In this document: positions 1-12,928 of the stretch, piece after piece
How positions within the stretch are numbered: position 1 is the first letter of the stretch
Layout of the letters: each line of letters opens with the position of its first letter
Source: Thainema sp.
GTDB lineage: Bacteria > Cyanobacteriota > Cyanobacteriia > Phormidesmidales > Phormidesmidaceae
Direction of reading: 5' to 3'
Length of the DNA stretch: 12,928 nt
Assembly (NCBI GenBank): GCA_052168235.1
Contig: JBQLZK010000115.1
Span: 1-12,928, forward strand
Notes under the pieces: generated by a model
Seen by the model: only the letters and a program-made list of their open reading frames with translations
The model's database searches: none
Told to the model about the DNA's origin: nothing
Program-made: the position numbers and the translations under genes

Positions 1-262
1 CGGAGATTCGTAAAGCCATCTATACGACCAATGCGATTGAATCGATGAATATGACTCTTAGAAAGGTGATTAAAAACCACCGAGCTTTTCCAACCGATGA
101 ATCTGCCCTAAAAGTTATCTACTTGGCAATTCAAAATATTGCCAAAAAGTGGACAATGCCCATTCGCGACTGGAAACCCGCTCTCAACCGCTTCGCGATT
201 GAATTCAGCGATCGCTTTCCAACTTGAGTTTTTACCTTTGACACAATCTATTTGACATACCC
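1..262 (+). mobile_element. IS256-family insertion sequence, right end (partial)
   Basis: Transposase C-terminus ends at 227, followed by TTGACACAATCTATTTGACATACCC ending at 262. Its reverse complement GGGTATGTCAAATAGATTGTGTCAA resembles IS256-family terminal IRs. TPR-like coding sequence begins immediately at 263. Confidence 0.88.
3..227 (+). CDS. IS256 (Mutator-type) transposase, C-terminal fragment; 5' end outside the window
   Basis: Frame open from position 3: EIRKAIYTTNAIESMNMTLRKVIKNHRAFPTDESALKVIYLAIQNIAKKWTMPIRDWKPALNRFAIEF. The IYTTNxIESxN and FPxDESALK motifs are characteristic of IS256 transposases. Confidence 0.93.
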   Translation, partial: EIRKAIYTTNAIESMNMTLRKVIKNHRAFPTDESALKVIYLAIQNIAKKWTMPIRDWKPALNRFAIEFSDRFPT

Positions 263-3139
263 GTTAAGGGCGCGATCTCGATCATCTAGTCCTGCTGTTG
301 CTAGGGCTAATCCATTAATCGTTAAGCCTTTATGGCCTAGCGCACCAATCCGCTGCTGAATGTCGAGTGCTTGCTGAAATGCCTGCTCAGCAGCAGCATA
401 CTCACCCAGTTGTGCTTTGAGAAAACCGGCATTGCGTAGGCTATTCGATTCACCGACCGGATCACCAATGTCTTGCCAAATTGTTAACGCTTGAGCATAC
501 GAATCTAGCGCCTGCTGAGATTGATCTTGTTGACTGTAGATGTTGCCAATGGCATCTAAAGTGGATGCTTCTCGGCGCACGTTACCGATGCGCTGGGTGA
601 TTTCCAGAGCTTGCTGATTTAAGGCCAGAGCTCGCTCATACTGGCCCATCTGGCTGTAGGTCAAAGCTAACTGCTGCGAGGCATATGCTTGATCATCCAG
701 ATCTTCAATATCGATGGTGATGTCAAGTGCTTGCTGCTGTGCCTCAATCGCGGCTGCATAATGTCCTTGAGTCGATTGAATCCGACCGATTGAAACCAAT
801 ACAGTTGCCATTGCGGGTCGAGCACCAGTACTTTTATAGATATTCAGAGACTGTTGGGCATACTCCAGCGCTTGAGTATAATGGCCTTGATCTGCGTAAA
901 TCAAACTCAAATCAAATAGGATCTTAGCCTGATCTGGCTTATGCCCTAGCTGAGTACTAAGGTCGAGCGCCTGCTGGAAAACCTTCCTAGCTTCGTCATA
1001 TTCACCTTGAATGTAATAAGTCCGTCCAATATTGCCGAGCGAAGTAATTTCGTTTGGCCGCAATCCAGTGTCTTGATTGAACTTTAGAGCTGCATATTGG
1101 CTGTCTAATGCGCTTGAATAGTCACCTTGGGCAGATAAAATATTACCAATATTAGCCGTAAATGAAACGACATCGCTCCGATAATTATTAGCAATTGCAA
1201 TATCTAGCGCCTGATCGTAGTATTCGAGCGCCTTTGAATATTGACCTTGTTCATAGTAAATATGGCCGATTGAATTCAAAATTCCAGCTTCTCTAGAAGC
1301 ATCTTCAAGATTTGTACCATCAAGATAAGTTTTATCAATATGCAGAGATTCTTCGAACGACTTTACAGCTTCAGAATATCGACCTTGCTCTCTATAGCCT
1401 GTTGCAACACTACTCAAAACTAATGCCTCAACAGCCCACGTTGACTCCATGCATAGCTGCCTGTAAAACTCTAGCCTTTTAATATTTCTTCTGTTGTCTA
1501 ATCCTGACAGCCTTGATGTTGAATCTTCATCCTCATCTATGTATGTCAAATCATCCAAGCCACATATCTTTAGCAAAGTTTCAATATTATCTAGCGATTG
1601 TAACTGCATCCGCACACTGCTATTTATTTCCAACACCCTATCAAAAGCATCCGCAGAGCTGTCGATTTCTCCTTGAAATCCATATAAAGTACCTAAATTA
1701 TTCAATATAGTGATTTGCATCAGAATATTTTCTTGGTCTTCAGCTAGAGATAAAGCCTCCTCATATGTCGTAGTTGCTTCTAAATAGTCGCCGATATCTT
1801 GCTGGACAGAAGCAACAGCAGTTATAAATACAATTTCTGCTGCAGGATTATTTGTTTGACGAGCTAATTCAATTCCCTGTTGTGCAGTAGTAGTTGCTTC
1901 TTGATAATGATATAAATGATTGTATGCAACCCATAGGTTAGAAAGAACTGCAAACTCGGAAATTGGGTTGTCCATTTTTTGAGCAATTTCAAGATTTTTT
2001 TTGCTAATTTCAATCGCTAAATCATATTTATTTTGAGTAGTATATACGTTGGCAAGACCTGAATAAAGATTATAAAATGTTTGAATTGCTCTTTGTCTTA
2101 GTTCAGGATCATTAGACTCAAATTCTGCTAATTCAGGCGACTCGATAAATGACTGAACAACGTTGAGCTGCTCTTGAGCATACATAAGTCCCTGCTCATA
2201 TGACTCAATCGCCTGGTCATAACTTCCTTCCTCAAGATATTGCTTGCCAAGATCATCCAGTGAGTAAGCAAGATCTCCTAAGGCATTAAATTCTGAATTA
2301 CGGCTTGGGGCGAGCCGAGCATATTGTAATGATCTTTCCGCTGCAGCAATTGCATTAGCATATTGCCCGAGTTCTGTATAAGCATCATTAATCCAGCTAT
2401 AGGCAGTACTGATTCCTACTGGCGCATTTGCTCTTGCAGTCTCATTTGCAAATGAACCGCCAGCGTTGGTAAAGGGTATGGATGCCTCAAATGCATCTAT
2501 CGCTTGCTCTCTGGCCTCGATCTCTTGTTGAAACAAGCCTTCATTAGCTAATCTCAGGCCGCGATTTTGGTAGGCATTTCCTAAAATTCGATAACTTAGG
2601 CCAAGACTATTGTTTGCTCGGGCAATGTCTTCAGCAAAATCATCGCTGTTGCTATCTCTGCTATTTGCTGCAGATAATTCTTCTTCACCTAACTCAATAG
2701 CCAACTGCGCAGTTTCAATACTTCTTTGTTCCGGCAGTCTGGCTTCGTCATAGCGTTGTTCCGTAATCAAAGTTTTAGTCTGATCTTGGTAGATATTAGC
2801 CATTGCCCTGTAGCTAGTTAGTTCATAGTTAGTATTGCCTAACTCTTGGGCAAGAGATATGACACGCTGAAAATATTCGATCGCCTCAGTGTTTTGCTCG
2901 TTATCTCGATAAAATCTGGCAATATCAAACAGGGCTCCTAGCTCTGCATCGCGATCGCCGCTTTCTCGTGCTGCTGCCAGAGCTTGCTCAAGGTTTTCTA
3001 GCTCCGATGAATCCGTTTGTTGTGCGACCAGATGAGAATGAGCAACAGTTCCTTGAGCCAAAGTTGTTGCCGCTGATTCACAAACAATCAGAGAGCATAA
3101 GAGAGAAGACGCAACAAGAGACCAACGCATAATCATCAC
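248..3139 (-). pseudogene. Exported TPR-repeat protein (probable TPR-CHAT), 3'-truncated by IS256 insertion at 262/263
   Basis: N-terminal hydrophobic signal ending in ...LVAQ and a long run of TPR units (e.g. EAGILNSIGHIYYEQGQYSKALEYYDQALDI). The ORF ends mid-repeat: the last codons GYVK-stop (GGG TAT GTC AAA TAG) are read from the IS256 terminal IR. A missing CHAT domain is inferred from the usual architecture of these proteins. Confidence 0.82.
263..1290 (-). repeat. Intragenic array of 120-nt (40-aa) TPR units
   Basis: Equivalent motifs recur at 361, 481, 601, 721, 841, 961, 1081 and 1201, e.g. TGTCGAGTGCTTGCTG at 361 and TGTCAAGTGCTTGCTG at 721. Exact 120-nt register with diverged DNA. 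Confidence 0.8.
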
Positions 3140-3231
3140 TTCAGGGCTAATTTTGCTGTATATATGTCTGTGCTATCGAACTTATTCAGGCTTTAACGGC
3201 GAAAAACTATTTTGATCCGTCCAGGAAGAAA

Positions 3232-3412
3232 GGCAGGCAGGATGCTCACCCTACGACGGAATCCTCCGTAGGATAGCCGTCTCGGCTGTCCCAACCCATA
3301 CCAAACTACGGGCAGGCAAGATGCCTACCCTACGAATTTTCTCCCGTCGGATGACGAAGATGGTTGTCCCTTTACATCACTACAGAATTGACAGGCGAGA
3401 CGCCTATCCTAC
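3232..3412. repeat. Cluster of five GTAG-type REP-like palindromes in alternating orientation (REPIN/BIME-like)
   Basis: Read 5'->3' on their own strand: 3232-3254(-) GTAGGGTGAGCATCCTGCCTGCC; 3268-3291(+) GTAGGATAGCCGTCTCGGCTGTCC; 3310-3333(-) GTAGGGTAGGCATCTTGCCTGCCC; 3346-3369(+, degenerate) GTCGGATGACGAAGATGGTTGTCC; 3390-3412(-) GTAGGATAGGCGTCTCGCCTGTC. Each is a GTAG tetranucleotide followed by a short GC-rich stem. Confidence 0.85.
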
Positions 3413-4104
3413 GAGGACTCATCATCACCCATCTGTTTCGCACAAATCTCGGTAATCCACTCTTCCCGCAGCGTCATCAACTCCTCCGATGGTTCCTCCA
3501 CCGAAAACATCACCTGCACCGCATCTGTCCGCAAATCTTGCTCCAGAAAATAATCCACCTTGGCCAATGCCAATTGATCAACCGTAGCCCCCGTAGCCTC
3601 TAAGTCAGCCTCCAACGCTTCTAGTTCTGTTGCAATAACGTGCCGCTGCTCTTCATTCATCAGCGTAAACGGTAACGGTCGATCAAACGGATTAGGTGAC
3701 TGTTCTCGATAGAGCATGTACCAGGCATAGGATTCTCCCGGCTCCAGCGGTTGTGTCATCTGGATACCTCGAAATCCCAGTGCCTGATACTCTCCAGTTG
3801 CTCGCCACACTTCAGTTTCATCTGTTAAAGTCCGTATCCCAACCGCATGGGCTGTACTGCGCCAGAGCAACAGCGGCTGGTCGTGCCAAACCACTTCGTT
3901 CTTTCCCGGATTGAGAATGCACATCTCACCCGGTTTACCCGTTCCGGGATAGCCCCGCCGCCGATCTTCTGAACTCCACCAGTTCAGAACCTGCTGCCAT
4001 GCCTCAAACTGCGTAGACTGAGCCAGCGTTTGCGTCGGCACTCCAGGCCAACCCAGCACCGCTACCAGACTAACAGCACTCCATTGCCAAACCTTACTTT
4101 GCAT
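3409..4104 (-). CDS. Exported DUF928-like protein
   Basis: 231-aa ORF with signal peptide (WSAVSLVAVLGWPG...TLAQ) and motifs CILNP...VWHDQPLLLW, LEPGESYAW and YFLEQDLRTDA, resembling DUF928 proteins that accompany CHAT/CHASE2 genes in cyanobacteria. Start overlaps the upstream gene end by 11 nt. Confidence 0.7.
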   Translation of the reverse strand: MQSKVWQWSAVSLVAVLGWPGVPTQTLAQSTQFEAWQQVLNWWSSEDRRRGYPGTGKPGEMCILNPGKNEVVWHDQPLLLWRSTAHAVGIRTLTDETEVWRATGEYQALGFRGIQMTQPLEPGESYAWYMLYREQSPNPFDRPLPFTLMNEEQRHVIATELEALEADLEATGATVDQLALAKVDYFLEQDLRTDAVQVMFSVEEPSEELMTLREEWITEICAKQMGDDESS

Positions 4105-6523
4105 ATCGCTGCTCCGATACTGCTAACAACATGTATGACCAAACCATTACCGACGGCAACAGCCACGGCACTAACATAGCCGCCGCCCGATAAATCCACA
4201 GACTCAACAGTCCATAACCAGCTGTAGCTCCCACCAGCACTAACCAAAACCGCCCCGACTGCGATCGCAGATCCAGTACTGGCATCACCGTCACCACCAG
4301 CACCTTGCCCACCACTGCCGCCACTAGAACCATCCACAAATCGGGAATCGGCACCACAAAATGCTGCCTCAAAAAATGATGCGTCATATAGGCATGAGCC
4401 TCTCCCCCCGTTAAGCCACGATTGGGGTTCTCCGTTTGACTGCGCCAAAATGCGATCACAGGTGGCGTAGGAAAGTTATCCTCTGCCTTATCTGTTAATC
4501 CCGCATCGAAGTGACCCCCTGGAGCCACAATCACAATCATGTCCTGCAAATCGGTCAGATCGTATGCTTGCAACACCAACTGTGGGTCGTCGAGCAACTG
4601 CCATGCCGGAACAGATGCATAAACCTGATCGGGCGGCACCGAGAAATCCAGGAGCGGCTGCAACCAACGCTGCCAGAGACCATAGGAAAACTCAGTGATC
4701 GGGTGTAGCCAAGCCCGCTGACCAACCATCTGCTGGTAGGTTCCCGGCTTTAGCTGGTTCAACTGAGATCGCATCTGTGTCGATAAACGTTCTGTACTGC
4801 TCAACTCCGGATGTATCGATAATTCTGCCTGTTGCTGAACCTGCTGCGCCATCGCCAGGGAATAACTAAAGGGGCGCGGTCGATCAGTATCCTTTTGCAG
4901 CGGCAAGATATGCCACGCTGGCACCCAAATATCGCCGCTAATAACCCAATTTGAATCTGCGATCGCAGGATTGACCGTTACCCATTCCCCGCCGTGATTG
5001 CGAAAGCTGGAAAACACAAACCAGGTATTCTGTTTCTCAATTGCAGAGGTTACAGCCGCTCGCAGTTCTGGATCATAGGACTGTTGCAGCGGTAGCAGAT
5101 AGTCAATCCCGACCACCTGAGCATTCAAGTCTGTCAGTTGATTAACGATATCGGCCAGATAATCCCGTCGAATATAGTCGGCATCCTCCGTTGCAAAGCC
5201 TGCTCGCTGCCGAGACTCGTCATCAATCTGCACCAGCAGCGTCGGTGGAGGATCTACGGCTTCCGACGCTCCGGTTGCTTGCCGAAAAACAGCTTGCGCC
5301 CAAACCCGCTGTTCCATCAGCCGATCTTGAACAACCGGTAACAAACTCAAAATGGCTAGAGCGGAAAGTGCGATCGCTTCTCGTTTCGTCGGTCGCAACT
5401 GCTTCAGCCATGTCTTCCAGCCCGTTGGCTGTAATTGAAACAACTCTGCATCGGGATGCCGAAAAAACGACGGTACCAAATGGGCAGATGGATAGGTCAA
5501 ATGCGTCTCCAGCTTGAGATGCTGGCACGCCTTCAGCAGCGCATCATGTACGTCTAGATAGTTGGCCAAACCGTCCAGAAACTGCACCAAAAATGTCTGC
5601 GCCACCTGGTTATGAATCTTCTCCCGCATAATTGCGACCTGACTCAGTCCCGATTCCACCAGCGTCTCAGCAATATCGAGTCCAGCACAGGAGTTGAATA
5701 GCGCAAACTGCAAGCCATTACGCTTGGCTATGTCTAAGTCCCGGACAATCTCGCTGATTGAAATCGATACGCGCGGTGCAACTAGCACTTCACCACCCAC
5801 GACTTTAGCCTCATCACTATGGCCTGAGAAGAACAGGATGTCCCAGCCTCGTGAGTCAACTAATGCATCACGGATCTGATCTCGTACCTGCAGCGGATCT
5901 TGCCCCTGCCGCCAGCCTTCAACCTGAACGTAGCCTAAGCCCTTAAATGCCTGCTGAATTGCCTCTACGTCTGACTTGATCTCGATACCGCTATCGTCTC
6001 CCATAATCACCAAAATCCGCAGATGTCCCGAACGCGGTGCTTGCCGATGCGTTATTTCTGCTCGGATATTGGCGGGTGAACGAGCAATTCGTAGCGGCTG
6101 CACCTTGCCAATTTCCCAGGTCTCCCAGGGTAAGCGGGCGATGTCAATCGGTTCGCAGGTGAGGAAAAGTTCTGTGGTGTCCGTCTCTGACTGTGTAGAT
6201 TTGGGATGCGCGATCGCATCTCGGATTTCATGTAAATCACCACTGCGTAACCAGCGATGAAATTCCGATAGAAGCTTAGCTTCCGTTTGAGCGAGTTCGC
6301 TGTGCCAGTTGATTGGCAATGAAGCGACTGTGCCCGTTGCGCCCGGTCGTCCCCGCAGAGCATGTTTGTAAAAACTTAGATAAGCACGCTGCCAATCTGT
6401 GTAGGCACGAGCCAAAGATTCAGGATAGGGAACTTGAGCTGACAGTCGCTGTCGCTGTCCCCAGTTCAGCTCAAAGAGACAGGTTTGCTCAATTCTGCGT
6501 ACCGCAAGATGATAAGTCGGCAT
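4094..6523 (-). CDS. CHAT (caspase-like peptidase)-CHASE2 transmembrane protein
   Basis: N-half is CHAT-like: RLPWETW, LRILVIMGD, DILFFSGHS (His, ~5819-5821), FALFNSCAGL (Cys, ~5687-5689). Then a hydrophobic segment (AIALSALAILSLLPVV), CHASE2 motifs (LLVQIDDES, RDYLADIVNQL...AQVVGIDYLL, IVIV, GGEAHAY) and three C-terminal hydrophobic helices with no cytoplasmic output domain after them. Confidence 0.88.
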   Translation of the reverse strand: MPTYHLAVRRIEQTCLFELNWGQRQRLSAQVPYPESLARAYTDWQRAYLSFYKHALRGRPGATGTVASLPINWHSELAQTEAKLLSEFHRWLRSGDLHEIRDAIAHPKSTQSETDTTELFLTCEPIDIARLPWETWEIGKVQPLRIARSPANIRAEITHRQAPRSGHLRILVIMGDDSGIEIKSDVEAIQQAFKGLGYVQVEGWRQGQDPLQVRDQIRDALVDSRGWDILFFSGHSDEAKVVGGEVLVAPRVSISISEIVRDLDIAKRNGLQFALFNSCAGLDIAETLVESGLSQVAIMREKIHNQVAQTFLVQFLDGLANYLDVHDALLKACQHLKLETHLTYPSAHLVPSFFRHPDAELFQLQPTGWKTWLKQLRPTKREAIALSALAILSLLPVVQDRLMEQRVWAQAVFRQATGASEAVDPPPTLLVQIDDESRQRAGFATEDADYIRRDYLADIVNQLTDLNAQVVGIDYLLPLQQSYDPELRAAVTSAIEKQNTWFVFSSFRNHGGEWVTVNPAIADSNWVISGDIWVPAWHILPLQKDTDRPRPFSYSLAMAQQVQQQAELSIHPELSSTERLSTQMRSQLNQLKPGTYQQMVGQRAWLHPITEFSYGLWQRWLQPLLDFSVPPDQVYASVPAWQLLDDPQLVLQAYDLTDLQDMIVIVAPGGHFDAGLTDKAEDNFPTPPVIAFWRSQTENPNRGLTGGEAHAYMTHHFLRQHFVVPIPDLWMVLVAAVVGKVLVVTVMPVLDLRSQSGRFWLVLVGATAGYGLLSLWIYRAAAMLVPWLLPSVMVWSYMLLAVSEQRYAK

Positions 6524-6561
6524 GATCAGGAGGCTCTAAACATTGAACGATAATCAACTCT

Positions 6562-6623
6562 GTAGGATAGGCGTCTCGCCTGCCCGTTGAAGAATGAGAG
6601 ACAGCCAAGATGGCTTATTCTAC
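6562..6623. repeat. Inverted REP doublet (GTAG-type)
   Basis: 6562-6585(+) GTAGGATAGGCGTCTCGCCTGCCC, whose first 21 nt are identical to the 3390-3412 copy, and 6600-6623(-) GTAGAATAAGCCATCTTGGCTGTC, separated by 14 nt. Confidence 0.85.
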
Positions 6624-7777
6624 AAGTTATTCTCTGGCTGATACACAAACGCAGGCAGCGTCAGCTCTGGCCCATTGGGCAGCGAAATCGTAACTGCAAA
6701 GGCTTCATCCCACGTGCCAAATACCTGAGCATAGAGGTGCATGGAATCCGTGTGATGGTGCAAGACCGACTCACTCAGAACCGATGACGGATCGGCAACT
6801 TGCAGCCGCGTTCCAGGCGGTAAGGAATCACCCGGACGGGGGCCAAGCACCAGAAATAGCGACCACTCTGGCGGTTGATTCTCTTCGAAAATCGTCCAGG
6901 TCAAGGCATAGAGCTGTAGCGTCAAGCCGCCGAGCTGAATTTCAGTACTGGCTCCTCGGGCTCGGGGCGGCACACTAATGCCGACAGGGCTTAGCTCCTT
7001 AAGCACGGACTCGATAATCTCCGTCGGGCTCAGCAGCGCTGCATCCGAAGCCAGCGGCGGCAAGAGCGACCACTGCAGTGCGCTAGCCACCTCATCCAGT
7101 TCATTCTTGAACCAGTGGCTAACGTTCAACAATGAGCGAGAGACGGAGCGAACAAAATCCGCCGTTGCAATTGGCGCAACCTGAGGAGCTGACGCGCTAG
7201 CTAACGCATTCGGATCCAAGCAGCGTAAGTAAAGCAGCAACTGCTCAGGCGACTCCTGAAATGCCGATAACGGTAGCCATGAATCGTTAGTTTTGTCAGA
7301 TTGATGAGCGACGAGCTGGGCCAGTTTATCAGCTCTCAGCCCCGCTAAAATATTGACCTGAGCGACTTCTTCCTGCACTTCAGCTAGCACGTAGAGATGA
7401 GCTATATCAGCGGTCTCTAAGTCAGGCAGCTGCACTCGTTCTTCCGTTAAGCTTGTCATCGGCAGCACACAGAGACGGTAGTCGCTGATATTGCACTGAA
7501 CTCCATACTTTTCACTTAAGTGGCAGACAGTTTGCGAGAATTCAGCTTGCTGTAACCACTGCTGCACACCATATAGCACCAGCATATTGAGATACGTTGA
7601 CCACTGCTGCGCATCGGGACGATTGGCCGCCATCCGAGTAGCTTGAGTAATGTGGTCATCCGTCAGTGAAATGATGGTATCAGCCATCGGTTCAAAATTA
7701 GATGAATTCGTAATTGGACGTGTAGACATCATCGGTAACAACCTTCCTGGAGGTGAGTTAGAACGGTGGTGAGTCAA
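6620..7777 (-). CDS. DUF1822-family protein
   Basis: Motifs QQWSTYLNMLVLYGVQQWL, AHLYVLAEVQEE, LLNVSHWF and a C-terminal beta-rich part (LPPGTRLQVAD...LYAQVFGTWDEAFAVTISL) typical of cyanobacterial DUF1822 proteins. The start is uncertain: TTG at 7777 overlapping the upstream stop (TTGA), or ATG at 7732 preceded by AGGAAGG. Confidence 0.78.
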   Translation of the reverse strand: MTHHRSNSPPGRLLPMMSTRPITNSSNFEPMADTIISLTDDHITQATRMAANRPDAQQWSTYLNMLVLYGVQQWLQQAEFSQTVCHLSEKYGVQCNISDYRLCVLPMTSLTEERVQLPDLETADIAHLYVLAEVQEEVAQVNILAGLRADKLAQLVAHQSDKTNDSWLPLSAFQESPEQLLLYLRCLDPNALASASAPQVAPIATADFVRSVSRSLLNVSHWFKNELDEVASALQWSLLPPLASDAALLSPTEIIESVLKELSPVGISVPPRARGASTEIQLGGLTLQLYALTWTIFEENQPPEWSLFLVLGPRPGDSLPPGTRLQVADPSSVLSESVLHHHTDSMHLYAQVFGTWDEAFAVTISLPNGPELTLPAFVYQPENNL

Positions 7778-9093
7778 GAGTTAAGGGAATGAAGATAGTG
7801 ACAAATGCGACGCGCAAACAAACTGTTGGCGCTACGGTTTCGAGCGCTGCGAGTTTCTCGATCTGCTTCATCCATGACGGCATCAATTTGGTCACTCAGC
7901 AGTTGCTCTAGCTGCTGATCGAGAGAACGAAGCTTATCGGCGGTCGCGTACTCTTCCGCTAGTTTGCGTATCTGGGCGAAGAGCGTTTGAATCCAGGTGT
8001 GGCGGATATCGGCGCGCAACTGCTTCATATTCATCGTCCGCGTCGCCTGCACCTGCGTTTCCCGATCTAGCATCGGTGCAATCGCACTCATCGAACACCC
8101 ATCACACTGAAATGCTTGCAAAGCTTTCAAGTAATTGGGATGTTTCGTTTGTCGCTGAGTTAAGACATGTGCGATCGCATTATCTAAACAGGCTAAAAAC
8201 TGATCTTGATAAAGCTCCAGAAACTTTTCTTGGGCAATTTCATCATCTGAGGGGACGGCAACAATGGGTTCAGGTAACTCTGGATCATCAAATGATTGAG
8301 TATTTCTTAGACCAGAGCGAGCGTAGATTCGGTATGACCGAAGTAAATTGGCTAGCTGCCGGAGCTGAGCGAGAACTAATCGAGGCGACCGATTGGGATT
8401 GATCTGCTTCAGTTGCGCCTCAGTTGGGGCTGAACACCGACTGCGATCGCCTGCCAGTCTCTGTTGAAAGCGAGCCTGACGATAAACCTGATGATAATGC
8501 TCTAGTAGCTGTTGAGCCTGCTCAATTTCATACTTAGATTGCTGATGAAAATCGCGCAGAATGCGCTCCACTTGCTCAACGGTCGTATCATTCAAGATCG
8601 CCCAATCACTGACTTGGTAAAGGCCATAATCCTTCAGCAACACTTGATTGAGTTCAGCATGATGTTGGGTCAGCCGACTGGCCCACGTCGATAAATTCGC
8701 TTGAGTTGGATCAAAGCTCTGTAAAATCTCAATCGCCACGGGCTGATATTGCCCTAGCGGTTGACCATCATCCGTCAGCACCAGCGGTAACAGATCTTCA
8801 ACGGTAAAACCATGCTTTTCACCAAAGCGACTGGCAATTTTCTGACAGGTCGTCTGAATCTGATGCGAAACGAAACAGCGTAAACACAGTAATGCTATAT
8901 CAGCCTGTTCGCCGTTTTCCCGCCAATATTCCACCAGTTGAGTTTGAATGATTCGGTCTGAAAGTTCTGTTGTTGATTCGGGGGATTGAATGTGTGATTG
9001 AAACCAGGCTTGAGCGGCTGGCTGTTCATCAAAGCGGCAGCGACCCTGATTATCGAGTCGTACCAGATACCAGTAGCGAGACGTTGCATTCAT
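7774..9093 (-). CDS. Divergent sigma70-like (HetZ-related type) HTH regulatory protein
   Basis: 439 aa. ILQSFDPTQANLSTWASR resembles sigma region 2 (FDP...FSTW/YA). YLKALQAFQCDGCSMSAIAPMLDRETQVQATR resembles a region-4 HTH. Lies directly upstream of DUF1822, a common pairing in cyanobacteria. The CDS is solid; the sigma call is inference. Confidence 0.6.
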   Translation of the reverse strand: MNATSRYWYLVRLDNQGRCRFDEQPAAQAWFQSHIQSPESTTELSDRIIQTQLVEYWRENGEQADIALLCLRCFVSHQIQTTCQKIASRFGEKHGFTVEDLLPLVLTDDGQPLGQYQPVAIEILQSFDPTQANLSTWASRLTQHHAELNQVLLKDYGLYQVSDWAILNDTTVEQVERILRDFHQQSKYEIEQAQQLLEHYHQVYRQARFQQRLAGDRSRCSAPTEAQLKQINPNRSPRLVLAQLRQLANLLRSYRIYARSGLRNTQSFDDPELPEPIVAVPSDDEIAQEKFLELYQDQFLACLDNAIAHVLTQRQTKHPNYLKALQAFQCDGCSMSAIAPMLDRETQVQATRTMNMKQLRADIRHTWIQTLFAQIRKLAEEYATADKLRSLDQQLEQLLSDQIDAVMDEADRETRSARNRSANSLFARRICHYLHSLNS

Positions 9094-9223
9094 TCTGCTC
9101 CAGACAATAACACTTGAAGTTGGGCTGCAACTGTTTATATCTAAGATGCAGGAACTTATTCACGCAGTCGAACGTCCTGCTGATTTTTTCATGCAAGATC
9201 GCACCACAGCAAATCCGATTTTA

Positions 9224-9325
9224 CTCACATCTTGCACCTTGCACTTTGAGAACCCGAAGAGGTTGTTTTGCCGCCGCATCGTGGCGGCAAAACAACCTCT
9301 TCGGGTTTTGATGCCACGATGTGAG
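9224..9325. repeat. Long inverted repeat / MITE-like hairpin element
   Basis: Perfect 25-bp arms 9251-9275 (AACCCGAAGAGGTTGTTTTGCCGCC) and 9283-9307 around a 7-nt centre. Outer 8-bp inverted pair CTCACATC (9224-9231) / GATGTGAG (9318-9325). Confidence 0.85.
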
Positions 9326-9330
9326 CTTTA

Positions 9331-12300
9331 CTAGAAGGGACGCCAGTCCCCAGCTAGAATAAACGCGGCCCAATAATACGGGTGGCTGTATTCTTCACCC
9401 GATTCGATCATATGAAGCTGCACCGCGCGGAGGGCTTCACTACGCCCCATTCCAGTAGTGAGATTTTCGTAGTACTGCGCCATCAAACTTTGAGTACCAG
9501 AGTCGCTAACCTGCCATAGGCTCATCAGTTGCGATTCGGCTCCAGCGAGGGCAAACGCCCGCCGTAATCCATACACTCCTTCACCATTGGCGATATCACC
9601 TAGCCCGGTTTCACAAGCTGATAAAACTACCAGTTGTGTTCCAAACAAGTTCAAGTTTGCAGCTTCTAGCGCAGTTAACACTCCATCTTCACTACCGCTT
9701 TGACGAGAATTGAATCCAGCTAGCGCTAATCCTGATCGCAGCAGCGGATTTTCAATTAATCCTCTATCCGTCGAAGTTGCTCTAGGAGTAATACTGGCTG
9801 GATCAATGGGAAAGACGCTAGTGCTACGTATGTCGGAATCAGGCGCGGCTAAATCAGGCAAAAAGAAGCCGTGAGTAGCAATATGCAAGATTTGGGGAGA
9901 TTGAACTTGCTTCAGTGCGTTTTCGGTCGCTTCGGTCTCAGTAAGGATATCAGCATTAGGTAGTAGAGTTTGAATCGCTTCAGCTTCAGCAGCTGTACCG
10001 TGAAGCCTACCAAACTGGAGTTGTCCCAGATCCGCTGATCGGAGGTCACCTTCCACACTACGGCTCGGGGAAACCTGAGCAGTCTCATAATCAGGATCTG
10101 CTAAAATGACTGCCGGATTTTGGCTGGGTTCAACGACATCTAACTTCAACAGATCACGACCGGAGTTGAGATAGCTGAGCTGATATTGCTGCACCAGATA
10201 TTCCTCACCTGCTTCTGGCTGTAGAGCTTCAAAGGGTACTTGGTTAAGCTGGCTATCGGGGGAGATGAGTAAGTGATCAACGCCCTGAAGATATGGAGCT
10301 AAAGGCTCAAATATCAAGCTATAGAGAGTATCAGTGGTATTAGCAACTACATCTGGACGTACGACAGACATGACTGTGCCGGAGTTGCGTCGGAAAATAG
10401 CGCTTTGATCTTGTAGGAGGGAGATAAAGGTCTGCACCGCCGCATCGATTTCAGTTGCATTACCTAGATCGACGACTTCAATTTGCCCATTGGGAAAAAG
10501 AAGGTAGGCGGCATAGCGAGGCTCATCGAAGCGATTTGATCCTGCCGCTGTAACATCCTCCTGATTAATTTGCTCGTCCACTGGATTCTTAGGATCAAAA
10601 GACTGATAAAGCGCATACTCAATTAGTACGCCATCTTTTGGAATCTGGGCCTGAACCGCATTTATATTGACTGACTGGGAGTCAAGCGCTAGATCTGCGC
10701 TAAGCCGAGCCAAAACAGTCTCTAACTCGTTAACTTCACTCCTAAGTTGCGCTAATCGAGCTTGATATTCAGTAGCCGACAACCCAACTGTTTGTTGCGA
10801 GGTCAGACTGGCAATCTCACGCCTTGCTTGACTTAGTTGGTTGAGCAAATCAATGTCGTCAGGGGTAGCACGCTGCTGCAAAATTTCTTGTGCTCTAGTG
10901 CCAGCCTCTAGTACTCGCCCCTTCCGGCGCAATACAGTTGTTAAAGCTAACTGTTTGGCATCAGATAAGTTTGGGGCAGCATCTAAGTTGAAGGAGATGA
11001 CATAGTTTATTGTATCGGCAAGCTGGGCAACGTACGCAATTCGATCGCTCTCCCCTAAGTTTGCCAGACTAATATCTAAGTTTTTTTCTTCAATATCTAT
11101 GCCAGCGCGAAGAGCATCAAGTGCTTGAGTAAAATCATCCGTAATCCGGTACAACCCTGCTAGATTGTAATAAGTTGATACCCGACGAGAGTCTAGAGCG
11201 GGTTCATTATACACCTCGTAGATTGCTAGAGCCTCCCCATAAAAATCTTCGGCCTCTTTATAACGACCTTGAGCCTGATACAGGAGAGCTAGATTGTTCA
11301 GGCTAGTGGCAGTGCTGGGATTTTCAACTCCGTCAAACGCAAGGCTCCGACGAATTCCAAGTGCTTCCCTATATAGTTCTTCAGCTTCCTCATATTGGCC
11401 TTGACGATGATAAAAATTTGCTAAAACGTCTATATCAATGGCCAATTCGAATGGTTCATTATCTAGACGGGCAGTTTCAACTGCCTGAACTAATAAAGCC
11501 TCGGCATCAGCTTGACGACTAGAATCTGTTAAAGAGTTTCCAGCACTCGTATTTGATCCCTGCGCTTCGTATACATGCGCTAATTGTGTTTGTATCACTG
11601 GAATCATGTCTTCACGTCCGCCCGCGTCTTCTAACAGAATATCCAGAGCTTGTTGATAAAAAAACTCAGATCGCTCAAATTGTTCACGAGCAGTCGTATT
11701 AAGTCCTAACTGATAAAAAATTATGGCTCGTTCCGCAGAATATGATCCAGGCAAAGCATTATAAATATCTAATGCTTCAAGATAGAGGCGCTCTGCATCG
11801 TCATAGCGTCCTTGCCCCCCGTACGATACCGCTAGGGTAGTTATGTACTCTGCTATATCAGGATGGTTATTTCCCAACCGCTGTCTAGCCGCAGTGATTT
11901 CATCCTCTAATACAGAAATTACTGCTATTCGAGTCTCTTGCAAACTCGTTTGATCAGTATTAGGTTGAAAGTTGAGATCGTAATATTTATTTTCTTCGAG
12001 CTGTATGTCCAAATCTTGAGTGGATTCCCAGGAAATAGTATAGCTTCCAGTCGTATTTTCACCGTAGGAAGTGACTAAAATCTGGTATGAGCCACTGCCA
12101 GGTAGAGCCAGCGAGACCTGGGAAGAGAATGGGTCATCGCCAGTTTCTCCTGTTGACCAAATGCTTTCCTCCGACCCTAGTGGCCCTATTAGAGCTAAGA
12201 AGGGCCAAAAATCTTCACTGGTTAAACTAATTTGAATTGATTCTCCAGCAGTTCCTTCAAAAGTATGGATATTTTGATATCGCTCACCAAAGGTTTCGCT

Positions 12301-12453
12301 GTTCTCATCAAGCTGACCCATGACTGAACCAGTCACACTTTGAGCAACCAGGATAGGCGACGCAGCAACAGTTTGGGTGATTGAAAAACCTAGACTACTT
12401 GCCAGAAATACTGTAGCAATGAAATTGCTGGTGAAACTAAACTTCGATGCCAT
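9331..12453 (-). CDS. Exported PPC-TPR-CHAT domain caspase-like protease
   Basis: Signal peptide ending ...ILVAQ; PPC-like beta domain (HTFEGTAGESIQISLTS...LPGSGSYQILVTSY); kinesin-light-chain-type TPRs (ATSLNNLALLYQAQGRYKEAE); coiled linker after LRRKGRVLE; CHAT motifs LLISPDSQLNQVPFEAL, ILHIATHGFF (His), ENPLLRSGLALAG, LVVLSACETGLG (Cys), MSLWQVSD and HPYYWAAF. Confidence 0.93.
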   Translation of the reverse strand: MASKFSFTSNFIATVFLASSLGFSITQTVAASPILVAQSVTGSVMGQLDENSETFGERYQNIHTFEGTAGESIQISLTSEDFWPFLALIGPLGSEESIWSTGETGDDPFSSQVSLALPGSGSYQILVTSYGENTTGSYTISWESTQDLDIQLEENKYYDLNFQPNTDQTSLQETRIAVISVLEDEITAARQRLGNNHPDIAEYITTLAVSYGGQGRYDDAERLYLEALDIYNALPGSYSAERAIIFYQLGLNTTAREQFERSEFFYQQALDILLEDAGGREDMIPVIQTQLAHVYEAQGSNTSAGNSLTDSSRQADAEALLVQAVETARLDNEPFELAIDIDVLANFYHRQGQYEEAEELYREALGIRRSLAFDGVENPSTATSLNNLALLYQAQGRYKEAEDFYGEALAIYEVYNEPALDSRRVSTYYNLAGLYRITDDFTQALDALRAGIDIEEKNLDISLANLGESDRIAYVAQLADTINYVISFNLDAAPNLSDAKQLALTTVLRRKGRVLEAGTRAQEILQQRATPDDIDLLNQLSQARREIASLTSQQTVGLSATEYQARLAQLRSEVNELETVLARLSADLALDSQSVNINAVQAQIPKDGVLIEYALYQSFDPKNPVDEQINQEDVTAAGSNRFDEPRYAAYLLFPNGQIEVVDLGNATEIDAAVQTFISLLQDQSAIFRRNSGTVMSVVRPDVVANTTDTLYSLIFEPLAPYLQGVDHLLISPDSQLNQVPFEALQPEAGEEYLVQQYQLSYLNSGRDLLKLDVVEPSQNPAVILADPDYETAQVSPSRSVEGDLRSADLGQLQFGRLHGTAAEAEAIQTLLPNADILTETEATENALKQVQSPQILHIATHGFFLPDLAAPDSDIRSTSVFPIDPASITPRATSTDRGLIENPLLRSGLALAGFNSRQSGSEDGVLTALEAANLNLFGTQLVVLSACETGLGDIANGEGVYGLRRAFALAGAESQLMSLWQVSDSGTQSLMAQYYENLTTGMGRSEALRAVQLHMIESGEEYSHPYYWAAFILAGDWRPF

Positions 12454-12619
12454 TATTCATGTCCTTTGATATACCTGTTGAAGTCTATCTCTAGCCGGCC
12501 TCAACTTATACAACCATTTATCTAGCTAGCACGGCATCAGGAATTAGCTACATTTTCTTAAGCTCGACTTTATCCATTTAGGTGGTATAGCACAGCAAGT
12601 TTGACCAGTAGTCGAAATA

Positions 12620-12869
12620 ACCTGAGTTCGGGATAAGAAAGGGAGGGCTCAGATAAGCTGAAATGAACCAACCCGTTCAGCGGAGCTCTCCTATGACTAG
12701 TCTAGAAGAGCTGTTTTGCCACCATATCGACGACTTTTGCCAACACTTTGAAGCGCAATGGCGCAGAACCCTAATTGAACAAGGAATCCGGCGACGCGAA
12801 CGCCAACGGAGCTTGAGTTTAAGTGAAATCATGACGCTGTTGCTAGCCTTTCATCAACAGCATTATCGG
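12620..12869 (+). mobile_element. IS982-family element, left end
   Basis: ACCTGAGTTCGGGATAAG at 12620 resembles IS982-type terminal IRs as I recall them from cyanobacteria. It is followed 73 nt later by an IS982-like transposase start. Confidence 0.78.
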
Positions 12870-12928
12870 CAACAGTCCGGACAGTTTTTGGGAGAGTGCG
12901 AAGAAAGCTATCCACCGTGTAGAGTGCG
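12693..12928 (+). pseudogene. IS982-family transposase N-terminal fragment, apparently interrupted at ~12870
   Basis: Hand translation from ATG 12693: MTSLEELFCHHIDDFCQHFEAQWRRTLIEQGIRRRERQRSLSLSEIMTLLLAFHQQHYR, matching IS982 N-termini (LFCxxDDF, LSLSEIMT, FH..YR). The expected xFK continuation is replaced by QQSGQFLGECEESYPPCRV. Not listed in the ORF track because it runs off the window. Confidence 0.8.

Follow-up and report, generated by a model that had tools for sequence, protein, structure and literature searches.

A conserved four-gene operon joining a caspase-like CHASE2 membrane protein to a sigma-like protein and DUF1822 in Cyanobacteriota: a candidate trans-envelope signalling system

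The question raised by this locus is whether a row of neighbouring cyanobacterial genes forms a single proteolytic signalling system that reaches across the cell envelope and, if it does, which of the genes belong to it. The stretch of DNA analysed (the window) comprises 12,928 nucleotides (nt) of Thainema sp. (NCBI GenBank assembly GCA_052168235.1, contig JBQLZK010000115.1, positions 1 to 12,928) and carries six open reading frames (ORFs) on the minus strand, spanning 248-12453 and numbered here g1 to g6 from 5' to 3'. An original prediction had read all six as one system, in which an exported TPR-CHAT protein (g1) and an exported DUF928-like protein (g5) signal to a CHAT-CHASE2 membrane protein (g4), whose CHAT protease then cleaves an anti-sigma DUF1822 protein (g3) and releases a sigma-like protein (g2), a second exported TPR protein (g6) being the remaining member. 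Comparison across genomes showed that the conserved unit consists of four genes, g2-g3-g4-g5, and not of six. The best explanation of the whole, given a probability of about 0.55, is that this operon encodes a trans-envelope signalling system with a bipartite promoter driven by g2, and that g1 is one of its outputs.

The locus set was obtained by searching a profile of g2 relatives against contigs from a collection holding one genome per species, which gave 290 confirmed places, of which the best 80 were used; ORFs were called in these loci and then searched with domain-sized pieces of the window proteins. By their record titles all 80 were from Cyanobacteriota, one (L048) being labelled Candidatus Sericytochromatia. 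The gene order proved to be strongly conserved. A g3 gene lay immediately 3' of g2 on the same strand in 72/76 loci with room for it (at least 700 nt available), the exceptions being L028, L031, L076 and L078. Genes of the g4 type, with N-terminal domain, caspase-like domain and CHASE2, came immediately 3' of g3 in 42 of the 63 loci with room and further downstream in four more (L035, L064, L071 and L073), and g5-type genes were found immediately 3' of g4 in all but four (L033, L034, L041 and L047) of 38 loci with room. Where g5 followed g4 it mostly overlapped the g4 stop, by 4-14 nt. Because this order recurs across loci while the flanking genes vary, the unit is g2-g3-g4-g5, and the tightest pair within it is g2-g3. 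The proposed linkage of DUF1822, caspase-CHASE2 and g5 genes to g2 is thus conserved, but g1 and g6 are not fixed members, and of the single six-gene system the order g2-g5 is retained while its two ends belong to variable flanks.

Variants of the unit were also seen. A rotated order, g3-g4-g5-g2 on one strand, occurs in L031 and L076. A g2-g3-TPR variant, with a TPR gene of ~310-440 aa and no caspase-CHASE2 gene in the locus stretch, includes L021, L027, L029, L032, L036, L042, L043, L048, L050, L056, L059, L070 and others, and is frequent in Coleofasciculus-type genomes. The system is paralogous within genomes, at least eight of which hold two loci among the best 80, e.g. Nodosilinea sp. LEGE 07088 (L006, L009), Sphaerothrix gracilis (L005, L028) and Spirulina sp. 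Cam_3-MAG04 (L015, L017).

In the window the six co-oriented genes of the original prediction are real, and, as it had stated, none of them gave a match to a kinase, response-regulator, cyclase or cas domain. With longest-ORF starts the gaps between successive genes from g1 to g6 are 237, -4, 96, -11 and 269 nt, which gives overlaps of 4 nt for g2/g3 and 11 nt for g4/g5. The predicted overlap of g2 and g3 depends on a TTG as the longest-ORF start of g3 and is uncertain because of that start, because the in-frame Met16/17 aligns with most orthologue starts and because residues 1-30 are modelled with a predicted local distance difference test score (pLDDT) <50.

The membrane protein of the unit, g4 (4094-6523, minus strand, 809 aa), consists of an N-terminal domain, a caspase-like domain, a first transmembrane segment (TM1), CHASE2 and three C-terminal transmembrane segments. 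In Pfam CHASE2 was matched at 6.1e-17 and Peptidase_C14 at E 0.19, and the CHAT match was sub-threshold at 19.3 bits against a cut-off of 24 bits. The motifs G234-H235-S236 and N277-S278-C279 were invariant in 33/33 orthologues, the codons of H235 and C279 lying at nt 5819-5821 and 5687-5689. Across these orthologues the N-terminal domain (residues 1 to about 165) was strongly conserved, and the caspase-like domain extends over about 170-340. Hydropathy analysis gave four hydrophobic segments, at 384-402 (TM1), 732-750, 759-777 and 784-802, which, taken with the domains, lead to a simplest topology of cytoplasmic N-terminal and caspase-like domains, TM1, a periplasmic CHASE2 and three C-terminal membrane segments. 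The CHAT-CHASE2 membrane protein of the original prediction is therefore upheld as regards CHASE2, the His/Cys dyad and the membrane segments, but its CHAT profile is sub-threshold; assignment of the two proteases of the window to the CHAT/clan CD group comes from the profile and ATHG/SACET motifs for g1 and from the invariant H235/C279, with the sub-threshold CHAT match, for g4.

The last gene of the unit, g5 (3409-4104, minus strand, 231 aa), encodes a DUF928-like protein that looks exported, with a signal-peptide-like N-terminus and, in the orthologue alignment, a helical C-terminal part. It carries a G-x-S-R-G...C...P motif in which R57 is found in at least 90% of sequences and C62 is invariant. 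DUF928 (PF06051) was matched by 18/33 g5 orthologues (best 1.6e-7) and Ig_Rha78A_N by 11/33, whereas the window copy had no Pfam match even at E<=10, and the predicted designation 'DUF928-like' therefore holds for the g5 family and not for the window copy alone.

Membership of the unit extends to g5, whose variation tracks that of the periplasmic half of g4. Among pairwise identities for 33 systems those of the periplasmic part of g4 and g5 correlated best (Spearman 0.75), the two halves of g4 giving 0.44. Partial Mantel tests, which were controlled for the remaining parts and are to be read as support and not proof, gave r 0.56 for the periplasmic part of g4 against g5 (reached in 0/2000 permutations), r -0.12 for the cytoplasmic part of g4 against g5 (reached in 1899/2000) and r 0.49 for g3 against the cytoplasmic part of g4 (reached in 0/2000). 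A comparison with the closest relative, L001, in which g2 is 94% identical, revealed a sharp boundary between the two halves. The DNA is 90% identical over 5385-9190, covering g2, g3 and g4 residues 1 to about 380, and the breakpoint at 5385, where similarity collapses, falls in TM1 of g4. Protein identity was accordingly 0.94 for g2, 0.92 for g3 and 0.92 for the cytoplasmic part of g4, with 0.52 for the periplasmic part of g4, 0.41 for its membrane segments and 0.37 for g5. The periplasmic part of g4 from L001 is nearer to that of L005 (0.62) than to that of the window. The mosaic (window 4094-5384 and 3409-4104 against L001:13710-15670) suggests a swapped sensor cassette.

The DUF1822 protein g3 (6620-7777, minus strand, 385 aa; Pfam DUF1822 3.4e-21) has no hydrophobic segments by hydropathy and, as judged from its sequence, is cytoplasmic and without a transmembrane segment. 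An AlphaFold2 model with a pLDDT of 78.3 was alpha+beta, with an alpha/beta N-terminal domain at 35-190, a disordered linker at 196-214 and a beta-sandwich C-terminal domain at 274-373. Foldseek placed the modelled C-terminal domain with ApaG/PDIP38-type adaptor domains (best 6.2e-4) and the N-terminal domain, weakly, with PvuII/Hjc-type folds (E about 0.02-0.03). The weak resemblance of the latter domain (about 35-190) is to PD-(D/E)xK-type nucleases, PvuII being matched with a probability of 0.99 at E 0.019 and Hjc with a probability of 0.87; within the DUF1822 family P118 and E137 are invariant and E136 and Q140 near-invariant. The anti-sigma domain, usually with a transmembrane helix, that marks the partners of classical extracytoplasmic function (ECF) sigma factors was not found in g3 by hydropathy or among the 44 Foldseek matches listed, and a search of the ESM Atlas with g3 from which DUF1822 clusters were left out gave no usable match.

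The sigma-like protein g2 (7774-9093, minus strand, 439 aa) is a core gene without Pfam or NCBIfam match. Its 269 homologues are all cyanobacterial and all annotated 'hypothetical', and a profile search of 1.84 billion representatives placed 695 cluster representatives in the family at E<=1e-3, only the g2 family itself being present among the 150 matches listed. The AlphaFold2 model (pLDDT 90.1, predicted TM-score 0.58) is all-helical except for an N-terminal beta-hairpin, has a low-confidence linker at 269-279 and contains a candidate sigma4-type helix-turn-helix (HTH) at about residues 318-360. The PDB matches that Foldseek listed for this model numbered 49, none of which reached E<=1e-3; 47 of them were chains of 262-371 residues in RNA polymerase holoenzyme or initiation entries, which from the nature of those entries and from the chain lengths are presumed to be sigma chains. 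Neighbours of g2 in the ESM Atlas were cyanobacterial clusters of about 340-550 aa, and Sigma70_r4 was present on 12-87% of members in seven of the ten neighbour rows listed. The sole match when g2 was aligned with an RpoE profile by hhalign was of residues 318-353 with RpoE 139-174, the region 4.2 HTH (E 0.067). Fusions of g2 with DUF1822 were found in two proteins (P0218 and P0261), which are either real or read-through artefacts of overlapping genes, and other fusions were CHAT+TRADD-N+g2 (P0232), AAA_35+TRADD-N+g2 (P0263) and AAA_35+g2 (P0121). The term 'sigma-like' for g2 is a reasonable lead; it fails the family profile test and draws on weak fold and feature evidence.

A promoter-like motif is shared by the g2 operon and g1. 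The 300 nt upstream of g2 were searched in 81 sequences (the 80 loci and the window), which yielded the bipartite consensus TGMATAAG-N11-CAGAnnTA. The first block, TG[CA]ATAAG, was found in 43/81 regions, with CAGAnnTA 11 nt later, where about 1 was expected from shuffles, and sequences with at most two mismatches to TGCATAAGTT were present in 52/81. The window copy 5' of g2 (9127-9166, minus strand) reads TGAATAAG-N11-TAGATATA and ends 34 nt before the g2 ATG, and a second copy (12477-12516, minus strand), reading TGTATAAG-N11-TAGAGATA, is located 24 nt upstream of the g1 ATG. A 40-nt position weight matrix (PWM) was built from the 43 g2-upstream sites, with the window g2 site included and the g1 site not. 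It found three matches scoring >=8 in the window, the g2 site at 25.3, the g1 site at 20.4 and one on the other strand inside g6 at 14.8, with none upstream of g6. In 200 shuffles of the window there were no matches >=20 and 0.01 per shuffle >=18. The strongest motif scores, about 40-44, were seen in the loci with the g2-g3-TPR variant, and the g2-upstream motif of L031, which has the rotated order, still scores 18.4.

Throughout the 1.2 Mb of the loci there were 107 matches >=18, where about 1 was expected by extrapolation from shuffles, and only those that do not precede g2 are independent of the sites used to train the matrix. As the nearest downstream ORF 47 matches had g2, 15 had a TPR gene, 8 a CHAT gene, 1 had g3 and 30 another gene, the remaining 6 having none. 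The 30 other matches precede 28 distinct ORFs, among which a Pfam scan identified three with Peptidase_C14+DUF4384, two with subtilase+PPC, five with RTX-repeat+TPR, four with TPR, and one each that were pilin-like, NHL+GH26 or carried an HD domain, 11 being without family. Motifs outside the core became sparser with distance from it: per 100 kb there were 17.2 in the first kb, 8.5 between 1 and 2 kb, about 4-6 between 2 and 8 kb and 1.3 between 8 and 10 kb. Position 3 of the motif is either A or C, and the g2 site agreed with other sites of the same locus in 38/41 pairs, an agreement to which shared ancestry can contribute; pairing at random, repeated 1000 times, gave 17.4 agreeing pairs on average and never more than 27. 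Tandem copies of the motif 60 nt apart were observed in L026:15201-15300 and L045:16239-16338, before a gene of ~185 aa without Pfam family, and in L015 and L017 similar small genes of no known family follow the motif.

The genes on either side of the unit differ from it in several respects. The larger, g1 (9331-12453, minus strand, 1040 aa), has Pfam matches to CHAT (3e-87) and TPR and a weak match to PPC (0.0095), and ATHG and SACET motifs can be read in its sequence. The other, g6 (248-3139, minus strand, 963 aa), has TPR families in Pfam. Like g5, both look exported, having an N-terminal hydrophobic stretch, signal-peptide-like in g1, followed by LAQ/VAQ. A CHAT gene (E<1e-10 to the CHAT part of g1) was present anywhere in 25/80 loci, within 1.5 kb upstream of g2 in 11/58 loci with room, within 1.5 kb downstream of the core in 7/51 and within 1.5 kb on either side in 13/41 loci with room on both sides. 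Close relatives of g1 (CHAT part E<1e-50) occurred in 5/80 loci, in three of them directly upstream of g2. L001 has no CHAT gene upstream of g2, and its DNA homology to the window stops at 9190, 97 nt upstream of g2. In 20/41 loci with room on both sides a TPR gene lay no more than 1.5 kb from one end of the core or the other, and the N-terminal half of g6 recurred in only one of the 80 loci (L010, on the opposite strand). Besides the g5 located after g4, L045 has a second DUF928-like gene (5128-5874, minus strand), adjacent to a g1-type TPR-CHAT gene and divergent from it, which hints at a separate DUF928-CHAT link.

The spacer between g1 and g2 holds a perfect hairpin (9256-9302; 20-bp stem, 7-nt loop), possibly a repeat element or one that terminates or insulates transcription. 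A weak T-run comes after it, on the plus strand alone, and the hairpin lies outside the stretch homologous to L001. GC content at third codon positions (GC3) was 0.375 in g1 and 0.336 in g6, as against 0.54-0.55 in g3-g5, with g2 intermediate at 0.457. Fragments of transposase genes occupy both ends of the window, the 3' end of one of the IS256/Mutator family at 3-227 (plus strand, Pfam 1.1e-9) and the 5' part of one of the IS982 family at 12663-12926 (plus strand, matching annotated IS982 genes by tblastn at 9e-9), so that insertion sequence (IS) elements bracket the six-gene block. No Rfam family was matched in the window, and a generic promoter and terminator scan gave sites no more numerous than in shuffles.

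Since the motif precedes g1, and precedes nearby TPR-CHAT and protease genes elsewhere, the flanking TPR-CHAT looks like an output and not an input. A role of g1 as a probable regulon member, with an output or feedback function, fits its sequence context better than the input role of the original prediction, against which stand the scarcity of CHAT genes upstream of g2, their absence there from L001, the hairpin, the different GC3 and the motif that g1 shares with the g2 operon. For g6 no specific link to the module was found, and its candidacy as a member of the system is unsupported, there being neither a motif upstream of it nor a conserved orthologue.

In the mechanism proposed, for which we infer the binding partners, the cleavage targets, the reading of the motif by g2 and the nature of the signal, g4 would be a membrane receptor whose periplasmic CHASE2 works together with the exported g5 and whose cytoplasmic half combines the conserved N-terminal domain with a caspase-like protease in which the His/Cys dyad is intact. 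A periplasmic signal would cause this protease to act on itself or on the cytoplasmic g2-g3 pair, the likeliest substrates being DUF1822 or the g2 linker, and cleavage would free or activate g2. The sigma-like protein would then direct transcription from TGMATAAG-N11-CAGAnnTA before its own operon, an autoregulation, and before nearby exported protease and TPR genes, in the window that of the TPR-CHAT protein g1. The core logic of the original prediction, a CHASE2 sensor and caspase acting with a sigma-like protein and DUF1822, is kept in this scheme and is consistent with the gene order; the invariant dyad of g4, the g2+DUF1822 fusions and the partial correlation of 0.49 between g3 and the cytoplasmic part of g4 speak for it.

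A number of findings weigh against this explanation. In the remaining 17/63 loci g2-g3 occurs without g4 in the locus stretch, usually with a ~330-aa TPR gene instead, and the pair can therefore work without the caspase-CHASE2 protease. Three other close pairs (L026/L045, L039/L061 and L049/L080) diverge evenly, which makes the L001 mosaic a single exchange event and no rule, and Mantel-type tests are inflated by shared ancestry. No anti-sigma structure was present among the 44 Foldseek matches of g3 listed, to rank 50 of at least 500, and PADLOC gave no family beyond generic TPR, and no other functional annotation, in the window. The remaining points concern g2 and its motif. Sigma70 Pfam models were matched at E<=1 by 0/51 members of the g2 family, and g2 itself had no region 2 or region 4 profile match of the Sigma-70/ECF family in Pfam, no match in NCBIfam and no sequence match in PDB by phmmer or profile. 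Its Foldseek matches had E values of 0.03-0.8 and TM-scores of 0.15-0.19, and the probability of the hhalign match with RpoE was only 0.8%, a comparison that is weak because the RpoE profile was shallow, all homologues found for it being orthologues of 86% identity or more. Because the sites that trained the PWM lie upstream of g2, its matches before g2 are circular; the link between motif and g2 is by location only, within the locus stretches, and is suggestive. Read as TGAATA-N17/18-TATAAA, the window motif resembles an ordinary promoter of the sigma-70 type, so that a housekeeping sigma with g2 as activator, or another factor, could read it. These last results would suit a g2 that is not a sigma factor at all and is instead an HTH activator or scaffold, the motif being a normal promoter or the site of another regulator, as would its length of 439 aa and the additional long helices that it has beyond the HTH. 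Such a reading is nevertheless unlikely, given that nearly all the listed structural matches are holoenzyme chains of sigma length, that Atlas neighbours carry Sigma70_r4, that the sole hhalign match falls exactly on region 4.2 and that the conserved AAG and CAGA blocks and the A/C concordance of 38/41 exceed what a generic promoter would show.

Other explanations concern the membership and purpose of the system. That g1 and g6 are chance neighbours, brought in by IS-mediated rearrangement among genomes in which TPR and CHAT genes are simply abundant, would account for the transposase fragments at both ends of the window, the end of L001 homology 97 nt upstream of g2 and the differing GC3 of the flanking genes. 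For g6, which has no motif, this explanation stands, but for the pair it is somewhat unlikely in view of the independent motif 24 nt upstream of g1, whose score was reached in 0/200 shuffles, and of the motif-preceded CHAT and TPR genes that recur beside the core in other genomes. The wiring of the original prediction shares its core with the explanation preferred here and has further points in its favour. Orthocaspases and metacaspases are Arg/Lys-specific, and the nearly invariant Arg of G-x-S-R-G, just after the signal peptide of g5, would suit a caspase-like protease of this specificity; the second DUF928-like gene of L045 adjoins a g1-type gene, 13/41 loci have a CHAT gene no more than 1.5 kb away from the core on one side or the other, and a feedback loop in which the sigma induces g1 and g1 processes g5 is conceivable. 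It is quite improbable as a whole, however, with a CHAT gene upstream of g2 in just 11/58 loci and none there in L001, with a hairpin and a gap of 237 nt between g1 and g2, with GC3 of 0.34-0.38 in g1 and g6 against 0.54-0.55 in g3-g5, with a motif copy of its own before g1 that fits a regulated target, and with a g6 lacking both motif and conserved orthologue. The module might alternatively be a conflict or programmed-cell-death system that senses invasion or damage; its caspase would set off a suicidal or defensive response, with the proteases as effectors. This is the interpretive frame in the passages of Kaur et al. (eLife 2021, PMC8195603) on such systems, and the fusions of g2 to TRADD-N, AAA_35 and CHAT elsewhere, the two loci in each of at least eight genomes, the swapping of the sensor half between close relatives and the IS fragments on both flanks are in keeping with it. 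Yet PADLOC recognised generic TPR only, the products linked to the motif resemble exported proteins, with PPC, RTX and signal-peptide-like N-termini, more than cytoplasmic killers, and the sensor faces the periplasm whereas phage components appear in the cytoplasm; the idea is improbable, and it overlaps with the preferred explanation instead of excluding it. Most speculative, and very doubtful at present, is a circuit that would read its own extracellular proteolysis. Here g2 would induce a local set of exported proteases and associated proteins (TPR-CHAT, C14 caspases, subtilases, TPR or RTX proteins), g5 would offer its near-invariant G-x-S-R-G as a periplasmic substrate or decoy site, CHASE2 would read the state of g5 and the caspase would process the DUF1822/g2 pair; the fast, linked divergence and swapping of CHASE2 and g5 would provide a private channel for every paralogous system, and such a circuit would amount to a protease cascade in bacteria that runs across the membrane both ways.

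Returning to the explanation of g2-g5 as a trans-envelope signalling operon, its central trio is not new. Kaur, Iyer, Burroughs and Aravind (eLife 2021, PMC8195603) described by comparative genomics how caspase-CHASE2 genes have genes for an ECF sigma and for DUF1822 beside them, and proposed that stimulus-induced autoproteolysis of the caspase feeds the sigma factor, so that the claim of the original prediction to know of no functional description of the module does not hold for in silico work. An earlier survey (PMC2853523, 2010) lists, in its relevant part, a caspase-CHASE2 protein in Trichodesmium. In the EACC2-caspase systems as Kaur et al. present them the N-terminal domain is constant, a caspase comes next and the C-terminal sensor varies, CHASE2 with transmembrane segments being one example; sigma and DUF1822 genes are their neighbours. 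The window agrees in its sensor (CHASE2 6.1e-17, four hydrophobic segments) and in its neighbours (DUF1822 3.4e-21; g2-g3 adjacent in 72/76 loci, g4 next in 42/63), and from this architecture the N-terminus of g4 is a putative EACC2. It departs from that account in g3, since DUF1822 is there called a TPR protein; the model of g3 is alpha+beta and not of helical repeats, and the TPR assignment was rejected. New here, as far as the passages of PMC8195603 on these systems are concerned, are the membership and co-variation of g5, the motif with its regulon and the alpha+beta model of DUF1822. A library-wide full-text search for DUF928 returned only a WD40 survey and not PMC8195603, whose own text was not searched for the term; no experimental study of the module was found in the literature and nothing beyond Kaur et al. 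2021 bearing on it, the motif and regulon not being searchable as text.

The family is of wider interest. It is widespread, with 290 loci in the one-genome-per-species collection and often two per genome, and it links a caspase-like protease to a putative transcription factor and a membrane sensor. Genes for CHAT and caspase-like proteins number in the dozens in filamentous cyanobacteria, and hardly anything is known of their roles. The motif makes the prediction directly testable and names candidate outputs, exported proteases and TPR proteins, and, if the explanation is true, functions would be provided for DUF1822 and DUF928.

Among better known systems the RpoE-RseA-RseB pathway with DegS/RseP shares with the proposed one an envelope signal, proteolysis, release of a sigma, an autoregulated operon and a bipartite promoter. 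Classical ECF systems have a membrane-spanning anti-sigma and separate proteases, whereas here the membrane protein would itself be the protease and the partner of the sigma, DUF1822, has no transmembrane segment and no known anti-sigma fold. The CRISPR-linked analogies drawn in the original prediction are as published, in the portions of the two sources concerned. The CalpL-CalpT-CalpS and SAVED-CHAT/PCaspase/PCc-sigma systems (10.1101/2023.06.23.546230) resemble the present one in that a signal-activated protease acts on an adjacent anti-sigma or sigma, and differ in their cytoplasmic cyclic oligoadenylate trigger, their link to type III CRISPR and their other protease families or sensor domains. 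In the type III-E Craspase, Cas7-11/Csx29, the TPR-CHAT protease Csx29 cleaves Csx30, an inhibitor of CASP-sigma (PMC10028731), so that, as may be the case here, a CHAT-family protease controls a sigma by cleavage of its bound inhibitor, and protease, inhibitor and sigma are encoded together. There is no cas domain in the six ORFs and no Rfam match, Cas7-11 and a CRISPR array being the marks of Craspase, and membership in a CRISPR system fails because there are no cas genes. The input of Craspase is a target RNA, while here it would be received by a periplasmic CHASE2 with the protease fused to the sensor, and the TPR-CHAT protein of this locus, g1, appears to be an exported protein and a target of the system. 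If this explanation is true, the operon would form a counterpart of the Csx29/Csx30/CASP-sigma switch that faces the envelope and is independent of CRISPR.

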